Of a DNA stretch of 63,973 nucleotides, positions 59,457 to 60,812 are shown piece after piece; the first letter of the stretch is position 1; each line of letters starts with the position of its first letter. Source of the DNA: Camelus ferus (lineage: Eukaryota); assembly GCF_009834535.1 (NCBI RefSeq), contig NC_045696.1, positions 3,908,001 to 3,971,973 of the forward strand, given 5' to 3'. The position numbers and the translations under genes are program-made. The notes beneath the pieces were generated by a model. It had not been told where the DNA came from, searched no databases, and saw only the letters and a program-made list of their open reading frames with translations.

Positions 59457-60812
59457 ATGGGAGCCTCAAAGTCAAAGCCGACAGCTCTGGACTGTGTGAT
59501 TAAGAATTTCAAAACGGAGTTCTCAGGAGACTATGGAGTTTAAATGACCCCTGGCAGGCTCCGCACTGTGTGTGAGCTTGAATGGCCAACCTTCGGAGTC
59601 AGGTGGCCCCAGGAGGAACTCTGGACCTAGCAACAGTGCGAGTGGTCTATTGAATAATCACTGGAATGCCAGGCCACCCAGATCAACCCCTGTACATTGA
59701 CTCCTGGCTGAATATCGCCCAGACTCTACCCCCATGGATTCGGTTCTGCTCAAATGGACCTGGACAATGCAAGATATTAGCAGCTCAGCCGGTCCAGGCC
59801 AAAAAGACAGACAGAGAAAAGCTTATTTTCCAGGGAAACACAGAGGATGAGATGAGCTTGCCCCCTCCGTATGCCCCCAGGGCACCGACACCTCCGATCC
59901 CTCTGGAGACACTACCACCCTCTGTGTCACCACCTCCCCAACCTGAGGACCCAGAGGCAGAGCCCAGCCCCCAGCCTGAGCCGGTAGGAAGGAGACTCCG
60001 CTCAGCACAAGCCGGGAGGCCAGCACCGCCGGCCCTCCAAATGCCGCTGCGGGAGACACAAGGGCCGCAGCAAACTGGGGAGGATGGGACTGTTCAGCCC
60101 GGGCGCCCCGTACTCTGCTATCAACCCTTTAGCACCACAGCCCTTCTCAATTGGCGCCATCATACTCCTTCCTACTCTGAAAAGCCGCAGGCATTTCAAT
60201 CACATCATGGTCTGAACAGAATTAAGAAGAGCTTCCACAGTAATAACAGATGAACAGCCACTGGTGAACCGGTCAGGAATTTTGGCCTGCCCTCCAAAGA
60301 AAAGGAGCAGAAAGTGTCGGAGCGGGCTGCGGATGGCTTCAGGGGGAGCGGCCACCCGGCGGTGGCAGCAGCAGCCCCTGCGGCCCCGGCACCTCCGTCA
60401 CCTCTGCCGCTGCCTCGGCCGCCGCCTCCGCCGCCGCCATGGCAACTGGGGGGGAGCGCCGGCTCCTGCCCAGCCCTGAAGCGATGCTGGGACAGTCATG
60501 GGGCTCTGTCGTGCATATGCCAATATTTGGTCTCTGTCCAGCCCACGATGATTTCTACTTGGTGGTGTGTAACAACTGTAATCAGGCTGTCAAACTGCAG
60601 GCTCTGATTGACCTCGTAGAGTCTGTCTTCCATTCTCACCATCCCACCTGGGGAGATGTCCGCCAGCTGCTTCTGACTCTTTTCAATACAGAGGAGAAGA
60701 GACACATTGTCACTGAAGCATGAAAACGGCTGCAGGGCCGAGTCCCCAGGGACACACTGCATGTTGAGGGGTGAGCACGACACGGGCCCCTGACACCAGA
60801 CCAGACTGGGAC
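59457..60812 (+). pseudogene. gag: ERV gag remnant (MA, Pro-rich p12-like region with PPPY, CA N-terminus), interrupted by the ATXN7 insert
   Basis: MGASKSKPTALDCVIKNFK..., PPPYAP late domain, YQPFSTTALLNWRHHTPSYSEKPQA // LIDLVESVFHSHHPTWGDVRQLLLTLFNTEE, PDWD; in-frame stops and frameshifts. Confidence 0.9.
60193..60602 (+). pseudogene. ATXN7: Captured, spliced, exon-permuted ATXN7 (ataxin-7) fragment inside ERV gag
   Basis: Encodes SERAAD, MATGGERRLLPSPEAMLGQSW, MPIFGLCPAHDDFYLVVCNNCNQAVK and, placed first, KPQAFQSH; these match the recalled ataxin-7 N-terminus; no introns. Confidence 0.9.

Follow-up and report, generated by a model that had tools for sequence, protein, structure and literature searches.

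Within a 63,973-nucleotide (nt) stretch of the Camelus ferus genome (NC_045696.1, positions 3,908,001 to 3,971,973 of the forward strand; this whole stretch is referred to as the window), a defective gammaretrovirus-like (class I) provirus at positions 57823-63626 carries a 410-nt insert within the capsid region of its gag gene. The insert, at 60193-60602, is intron-free, circularly permuted sequence of the host ATXN7 gene, and runs from the tail of exon 5 through exon 2, exon 3 and exon 4 to the head of exon 5. We judge, with a probability of roughly 0.8, that a gamma-like retrovirus captured one lap of a circular RNA comprising ATXN7 exons 2 to 5, by template switching of its reverse transcriptase (RT). 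Capture of a back-spliced ATXN7 RNA by an endogenous retrovirus (ERV) had been proposed in an earlier, sequence-only reading of the window, which had named in advance three observations that would speak against it, namely a block that is not upstream ATXN7 exon, a join off the splice sites, and a tandem exon duplication in the host gene; none of the three was made, and the proposal is supported. What did not survive is the notion of an event private to the window locus, because a single ancient capture has been inherited by at least 38 copies.

The gag frame runs as far as 60192, ending ...LLNWRHHTPSYSEKPQA, and is taken up again at 60603 as ...LIDLVESVFHSHHPTWGDVRQLL..., with Gag_p30 sequence downstream, which agrees with the earlier description of a capsid (YSEKPQA/LIDLVESVF) split by 410 bp of non-viral, intron-free DNA. 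When the insert was compared by BLAST with 80 kb of the host locus, on the minus strand of contig C17, five blocks were obtained. Host exons are numbered here by position, counting from the exon that holds the start codon and the CAG run, and not by annotation, and the zinc-finger exon is exon 5 in this scheme. The blocks are 60182-60211 (C17:14512695-14512666, the end of the zinc-finger exon), 60209-60305 (C17:14564914-14564815, 84% identity over 100 nt, E 1.8e-25, lying 52 kb upstream of the zinc-finger exon), 60303-60352 together with 60413-60501 (C17:14551507-14551191, the start-codon and CAG exon), 60494-60511 (C17:14550877-14550860, the end of the exon after the start-codon exon), and 60517-60602 (C17:14512770-14512685, 96.5% identity over 86 nt). 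The gene, previously recognised as ataxin-7 from the human protein sequence, is confirmed as such by the translation of host exon 5, which is identical at 33 of 33 positions to a rat protein described as 'similar to spinocerebellar ataxia 7 homolog', other matches being named ataxin-7. The insert and its borders are made up as follows.

60185..60192, + strand: upstream copy of the microhomology CCGCAGGC, found once in empty sites and once in the 627-nt circle
60193..60209, + strand: last 17 nt of exon 5, identical to the host at 15 of 17 positions (host ...CATTATG/GTAAGT)
60210..60304, + strand: exon 2, a 5' untranslated region exon, identical at 82 of 95 positions to host C17:14564913-14564816
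60305..60501, + strand: exon 3, with start codon and CAG run, placed by alignment to the host; its 3' end is AGTCATGG
60502..60514, + strand: last ~15 nt of exon 4, with a 2-nt deletion private to the window copy
60515..60594, + strand: head of exon 5 (MPIFGLCPAHDDFYLVVCN.CNQ.VK), identical to the host at 84 of 88 positions over 60515-60602, repeat included (host acceptor TTGCAG/)
60595..60602, + strand: downstream copy of the microhomology, CTGCAGGC in the window copy and CCGCAGGC in several other copies

The decisive feature of this arrangement is the join at 60209/60210, where the host exon-5 donor (CATTATG/GTAAGT) meets the exon-2 acceptor (TTTATAG/), so that a downstream exon end is attached to an upstream exon start. 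Since GT opens both the intron and exon 2, the join can be placed only to within 2 nt; with that proviso, the block limits 60193-60209 and 60210-60304 given in the sequence-only reading proved exact, and the coincidence of the join with splice sites held. Exon 2, which that reading had taken for an upstream ATXN7 exon, precedes the start-codon exon by 13 kb on the same strand; in the host it begins GTCTGAAC and is bounded by a polypyrimidine-AG acceptor (...TTTATAG/GTCTGAACAG) and a GT donor (AAAAG/GTAAC), and in the insert it is spliced exactly onto the start-codon exon. Every internal join of the insert is an exact exon-exon join. The host exons measure 98, 355, 69 and 105 nt, giving a circle of 627 nt, and exons 2 to 5 account for the whole of the insert, abutting virus on both sides, with no introns, no poly(A) and nothing from outside the circle. 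Relative to the host, the insert has deletions within the GC/CAG-rich stretch of exon 3, which recur in all aligned copies, and is missing some 94 nt that lie between AGTCGTGG in exon 3 and AGTCATGG in exon 4; this exon 3/4 deletion, which lies at the repeat AGTCATGG and removes the end of exon 3 and the start of exon 4, is found in 30 of 30 aligned copies. A tandem exon duplication in host ATXN7, which could have yielded the same order in a linear transcript, was sought and is absent at the present day, because exons 2 and 5 occur once each outside the ERV copies and the 80-kb locus is colinear.

As a separate matter, the start-codon exon of the host gene (L026:1151-1505; C17:14551151-14551505, minus strand) is split between frames, with MSERAADDVKGEPRRA in one and AAAAAGGAAAAAARQ(13)...MATVGERRPLPSPEAMLGQSW in another, reflecting either an assembly error of 1-2 nt in a GC-rich stretch or a real difference at the start of the protein.

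The site into which the ATXN7 sequence was inserted can be read from relatives that lack it. A pattern composed of two window motifs with N between them matched 28 places in the genome, against one for the reversed pattern used as control; 26 of the 28 are gag copies reading ...TACTCTGAAAAGCCGCAGGCTATGATTGACC... (protein TCCTACTCTGAAAAGCCGCAGGCTATGATTGACCT) without interruption, and the other two are unrelated matches with three mismatches each. Alignment of the 26 insert-less copies to the window is gap-free on either side of the insert. Because 60192 and 60603 are contiguous in these empty sites, no viral base was lost at insertion, as had been supposed from the window alone, and an external Gag_p30 protein is likewise continuous over the site (...YTEKPQALIDLV...). 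The crossover is legible because the microhomology CCGCAGGC is common to the virus and to ATXN7 exon 5, which at this point reads GTCAAACCGCAGGCATTTCAA in the host; the 8-mer, encoding KPQA in both proteins, has a single occurrence in the virus and another in the 627-nt circle and stands at both ends of the insert, and microsimilarity between element and cellular RNA is present at both fusion points. A longer, 11-nt form, AAACCGCAGGC, stands at the 5' junction in 17 of 20 aligned long copies and at the 3' junction in 13 of the 20. The synonymous AAA variant (the A variant of AAACCGCAGGC) is found in three of the 26 empty sites, and the match may therefore have measured 11 nt at the time of capture.

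Copies of the insert are numerous and share its scars. Probing the genome with the insert gave 41 matches, consisting of 22 full-length copies (the window included), 16 partial copies, two host exons and one short GC-rich match, while a 160-nt probe over the back-splice recovered 22 ERV copies and host exon 2 (23 of 23 candidates scored), and a back-splice pattern found 21 sites genome-wide with none for its control. Insert-bearing copies thus number at least 38 (22 long and at least 16 short) and insert-less copies at least 26. No difference was seen at either virus/host junction, at the back-splice, or at the exon 2/3 and 4/5 joins among the 20 long copies aligned first, nor among all 22 in a wider alignment, and the long copies also share their internal deletions relative to the host. 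Because the junctions and internal deletions are identical across the long copies, independent captures are excluded; separate captures for the two groups into which the long copies fall were considered and rejected on the same grounds. A single capture therefore took place, and its product then multiplied as a non-autonomous element. Sequence of exon 1 or exon 6 is present in no aligned copy, long or short, and genome-wide searches with the insert and back-splice probes found no standalone pseudogene of circular ATXN7 outside ERVs. The insert-bearing copies are spread over many chromosomes, each with substitutions of its own.

In the short form, of which eight of the 16 partial copies were fetched and aligned, gag ...GAAAAGCCGC is joined directly to exon 3 ...CCAGCAACAGCAG in all eight by an extra deletion at a GCCGC microhomology. 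The same eight copies hold variants typical of the second long group. That the short form might be an original capture of linear mRNA was rejected, since it carries the derived variants of the second group and nests inside it. A tree of the insert, rooted on the host exons and including 22 long and eight short copies, places the window's group as basal, with end branches of 0.055-0.17, and unites the second long group and the short form in a derived clade with a support of 97 in the Shimodaira-Hasegawa-like approximate likelihood ratio test (SH-aLRT). The window's group comprises 15 copies, the window among them, and all have the gag-pol deletion at 60815/60816 described below. Two further copies of this group, fetched whole, have pairs of long terminal repeats (LTRs), the overall structure of the window provirus and different flanks, their 4-bp duplications being GCCT/GGCT and ATTG/ATAG with three of four positions matching in each. 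As the flanks differ in the three copies checked (that of the window and these two), these copies spread by integration and not by segmental duplication.

Some individual copies may have had other histories. Three insert-bearing copies lie within 270 kb on one contig, at C9:17428934-17429369(-), C9:17440316-17440729(+) and C9:17699878-17700280(+), and the first two, oppositely oriented and separated by 11 kb, group as sisters on the insert tree with an SH-aLRT of 93, suggesting a local inverted duplication and not two integrations. Among the insert-less copies, L040 and L045 (C4:75909774-75912808 and C9:80540881-80542791) have near-identical gag flanks and end branches of 0.0013 and 0.0014, and one of the two sits at the extreme end of its contig; the pair results from a duplication of very recent date, from a recent integration, or from duplication in the assembly.

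The consequences of the insert for gag are uniform. Among the 21 long copies scanned for stops (L003, with no anchor, was left out), the gag frame meets a stop no more than 34 codons into the insert in every one, 17 of them at the same exon-2 TGA, and in eight of eight short copies it stops within 45-118 codons. The frame of ATXN7 itself is shifted because of the shared 94-nt deletion, and the private 2-nt deletion alone accounts for the 151-codon frame that stays open across the 3' junction in the window copy. In the 21 long and eight short copies, no open viral-host fusion frame was seen for the captured sequence. When homologues were sought for a 94-amino-acid open reading frame across the 3' junction (13 candidates, limited to proteins of 51-165 amino acids), none of the 12 matches was chimeric, all being ATXN7/ATXN7L1 fragments or Gag_p30 proteins. 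From its sequence, the insert looks like a passenger that makes its element helper-dependent. Four RNA runs (X15-X18) contain 0.12-0.34 of the 31-mers sampled from window positions 60000-60800, figures that are shares of words and not of aligned reads, and that hint at transcription of the defective window copy.

A circle of the required composition is known in human. In supplementary file 4 of PMC13313202, circATXN7(2,3,4,5).1 is listed as hsa_circ_0002634, bearing out the earlier statement that circular ATXN7 RNAs are reported in human; this catalogue RNA has the same exon set and hence the same exon 5-to-exon 2 back-splice. All human ATXN7 circles listed in PMC13313202 include exon 3 with its CAG run, and another human circATXN7, of exons 2-3 and 405 nt, is given in PMC10786880.

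These features can be assembled into a single course of events. A gamma-like retrovirus in an ancestor of the host would have co-packaged the back-spliced circle of ATXN7 exons 2-5, which would measure 627 nt in the present host. During minus-strand DNA synthesis, RT would have copied the capsid KPQA codons (CCGCAGGC), and the nascent DNA end may then have re-annealed to the identical 8-mer in ATXN7 exon 5, or to 11 nt, AAACCGCAGGC, if the viral template carried the one matching variant. A lap of the circle would follow, through the exon-5 head, exon 4, exon 3, exon 2, the back-splice join and the exon-5 tail, until a second encounter with the same 8-mer returned the enzyme to viral RNA. The expected product is a clean insertion with duplicated microhomology flanks, permuted exons and intact viral sequence; nothing viral would be replaced, because a circular donor brings the enzyme back to the same microhomology. 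Slippage on the GC/CAG-rich template, at capture or soon after, may have deleted parts of exon 3 and the ~94 nt between AGTCGTGG and AGTCATGG. With its gag frame closed by a stop in exon 2 of the insert, the recombinant would have been non-autonomous from the start, amplifying in trans, probably with the help of other viruses, first as the deleted ~5.8-kb element of the window's group. Later, recombination would have carried the insert onto a younger backbone, where the deletion at the GCCGC microhomology gave rise to the short form.

A circle is not the only conceivable donor. A linear RNA with repeated exons, produced by trans-splicing of ATXN7 exon 5 to exon 2 of another pre-mRNA or transcribed from a tandem duplication of exons 2-5 since lost, would offer the same canonical exon-5/exon-2 join and the same one-repeat geometry, RT entering at the downstream CCGCAGGC and leaving at the upstream one, and the sequence by itself does not separate it from a circle. 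We nevertheless regard this donor as unlikely, given that exons 2 and 5 are single-copy in the present genome with a colinear locus, that a circle of exactly these exons is recorded in five human databases, and that no copy holds any exon 1 or exon 6. It is similarly hard to favor an event at the level of DNA, in which complementary DNA of the circle, made by LINE-1, a long interspersed element, or by another cellular RT, was inserted or end-joined at the CCGCAGGC of one ERV that was later amplified. The final structure would be identical, and the bottom strand beside the site, TTTTC, loosely resembles a LINE-1 nick; yet poly(A) is absent, and apart from the shared 8-mer, which the host sequence carries too and which is therefore homology and not duplication, the site shows no target-site duplication. 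Such an event must moreover have struck, by a rare hit, precisely the copy that became the master element, whereas template switching by retroviruses at microhomology happens often and is on record (PMC5131818), and for these reasons it is rated as quite improbable, slightly more so than the linear repeat.

Repeated switching among linear ATXN7 mRNAs or pre-mRNAs, with breakpoints falling on exon boundaries by chance, has in its favor that multiple switches are known in LTR-mediated retroposition (PMC5131818) and that the 2-nt GT ambiguity relaxes the join a little. The two breakpoints would need to land, to within 2 nt, on the final base of exon 5 and the opening base of exon 2, and entry and exit would also have to coincide at the same 8-mer, which makes this account very improbable. 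An artefact of assembly or of chimeric reads at the window locus would be the most trivial account and is scarcely credible, for the structure recurs in 22 long and at least 16 short copies on many chromosomes, with individual substitutions, and DNA runs of three organisms from several studies contain 0.59-0.76 of the sampled words of the window copy, these again being word shares and not aligned reads.

Several observations sit less comfortably with capture from an exon 2-5 circle in a retrovirus of this host. The circle is catalogued in human, and the host's own circle is putative. In a tree of the flanking gag (55 rows, L004 being left out by a length filter), the window's group is separate, but the insert-bearing copies do not form one clade; insert-less copies enclose the second group and the short form (SH-aLRT 97), and at least two changes of insert state are required. 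Reconciling the two trees takes an added assumption, namely that recombination between co-packaged genomes brought the insert onto a younger backbone or, alternatively, that the insert was precisely lost at the 8-nt repeat. About 8-9 positions in exon 2 separate all ERV copies from the present host exon, so that capture in another species, or long evolution before amplification, is possible. The crossover within the A-run of the 5' junction (five A's) is only partly accounted for. Finally, no convincing inverted repeats pair the two flanking introns: between 15 kb of the intron ahead of exon 2 and 12.7 kb of the one that follows exon 5, inverted matches numbered zero at E<=1e-10, with a single 46-nt match at E 2.6e-05, a result that lends no support to the circle and is not evidence against it.

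Pseudogenes derived from circular RNAs (circRNAs) were reported in 2016. Dong et al. (2016; PMC4897178) described 33 high-confidence copies of mouse circRFWD2 in which exon 6 is joined to exon 2, found LTRs to be enriched in the sequence flanking the copies, and stated that the mechanism 'remains mysterious'. The ATXN7 inserts resemble these copies in being intron-less, in their non-colinear back-splice join, in the lack of poly(A), and in the many copies derived from one circle, and they show two hallmarks of circRNA-derived pseudogenes in the sense of that paper, a back-splice-type join and only exons of the circle without poly(A); the parent circRNA is catalogued in human and putative in this host. 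Unlike the ATXN7 insert, which is resolved to the base inside the gag capsid, the mouse copies were not placed in a retroviral gene, and the ATXN7 family, in another gene and another host, adds a duplicated microhomology, empty-site relatives, and a single capture followed by amplification. Mediation by LTRs was proposed for such pseudogenes in a 2017 review, and a 2025 review, in its passages on the topic, cites for them just Dong et al. (2016) and a 2017 review. Across the openly searchable literature, a scope that leaves subscription journals and Repbase/Dfam outside, no ERV-borne ATXN7 insert and no resolved mechanism for circRNA-derived pseudogenes was found beyond Dong et al. (2016) and the reviews citing it.

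The biochemistry has a closer counterpart in LTR-mediated retroposition as described by Tan et al. (2016; PMC5131818), in which microsimilarity-dependent template switching joins cellular RNAs to LTR elements. As in those cases, a copy of a cellular RNA lies between two LTRs and the chimera is non-autonomous and retroposes again, and the microsimilarity at the fusion points, with a median of 6 bp in PMC5131818, is 8-11 in the ATXN7 insert. The donors there are linear mRNAs, and the words 'circular' and 'circRNA' are absent from the text of that paper; in the cases it describes, the open reading frames of the element are partly replaced and none is a continuous element with an interrupting insert, whereas the ATXN7 insert replaces nothing. 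Set against the features of LTR-mediated retroposition, the position between LTRs and further retroposition are both present here, and replacement of internal sequence is absent. That no element sequence was replaced is the difference expected of a circular donor.

Acutely transforming retroviruses transduce host genes through read-through or chimeric transcripts, with viral genes replaced and a fusion protein expressed. The ATXN7 element is like a product of classical transduction in that host sequence resides in a defective, helper-dependent retroviral genome. It departs from that model in its intact viral sequence, the circular order of the donor exons, and a gag frame that is stopped in 21 of 21 long copies.

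If the capture took place as proposed, the origin of a circRNA-derived pseudogene would be explained at base resolution by known retroviral biochemistry, that is, by one microhomology, one lap, a clean insertion and helper-dependent amplification, and the entry of circular RNAs into the germline through retroviruses would be possible. The family would set a minimum age for the back-splicing of ATXN7 exons 2-5, in a disease gene whose CAG exon lies within the circle, and it provides a simple signature by which further cases can be sought. The gag-disrupting passenger did not block the spread of its element and may not have hampered it. Tentatively, and at somewhat less than even odds, co-packaging of circRNAs and microhomology-guided template switching may form a general, unrecognised mammalian route to circRNA-derived pseudogenes, including the LTR-flanked mouse circRFWD2 copies. 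Were this so, clean insertions of a whole number of laps, bracketed by a single duplicated microhomology with the viral sequence intact, could be searched for genome-wide, and captured circles would be carried along by non-autonomous ERVs able to equal or exceed in number the parents that lack the insert, as here (at least 38 versus at least 26).

The provirus that carries the window copy is much reduced. Its features are these.

57819..57822, + strand: 5' copy of the target-site duplication AGGG, the same 4 nt standing at 63627-63630 after the 3' LTR
57823..58239, + strand: 5' LTR, TGTG...AACA, aligned to 63305-63626
58244..58261, + strand: 18-mer resembling a primer-binding site, starting with TGG (TGGAGGCCCCAGCGAGAT), 4 nt past the 5' LTR, from direct reading
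59457..60192, + strand: gag, comprising matrix, a p12-like part that holds a PPPY motif, and the beginning of capsid, ending ...YSEKPQA, from open reading frames
60603..60815, + strand: resumption of capsid (Gag_p30), LIDLVESVFHSHHPTWGD..., Pfam PF02093, E 6.8e-08
60816..62330, + strand: pol remnant; a large internal deletion joins capsid to pol at 60815/60816
61300-61617, + strand: RNase H, Pfam PF00075, above cut-off
62043-62201, + strand: integrase core, Pfam PF00665, below cut-off
62658..63304, + strand: remnant of the env transmembrane subunit, Pfam TLV_coat PF00429, E 6.4e-30
63293-63304, + strand: polypurine tract, from direct reading
63305..63626, + strand: 3' LTR, aligned to the 5' LTR
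63627..63630, + strand: 3' copy of the target-site duplication AGGG, matching 57819..57822

The LTR ends are TG...CA and the 4-bp duplication is perfect (AGGG/AGGG), while Gag_p30, TLV_coat and RNase H score above their Pfam cut-offs and the integrase match below its own, which places the element among class I ERVs. The gag portion 59457-60192 bears frameshifts and stops, and 59453-60192 aligns with insert-less and insert-bearing relatives alike. Deletion has been heavy, with capsid directly meeting the RT connection/RNase H region at 60815/60816. Between the two LTRs, the best block is identical at 198 of 213 positions, and the unique 3' region (U3) is more diverged and contains indels; the divergence of about 7% suggests that the window provirus may have integrated some 16-35 million years ago, at an assumed, not computed, rate of 1-2.2e-9 substitutions per site per year. 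The leader at 59002-59453 aligns only with the window's own group (L035, L036), and elsewhere, in the second group, in the short form and among the insert-less copies, its place is taken by a ~410-nt leader stretch of similar length that does not align, a pattern that points to a swapped or fast-evolving leader and would be consistent with recombination between lineages.

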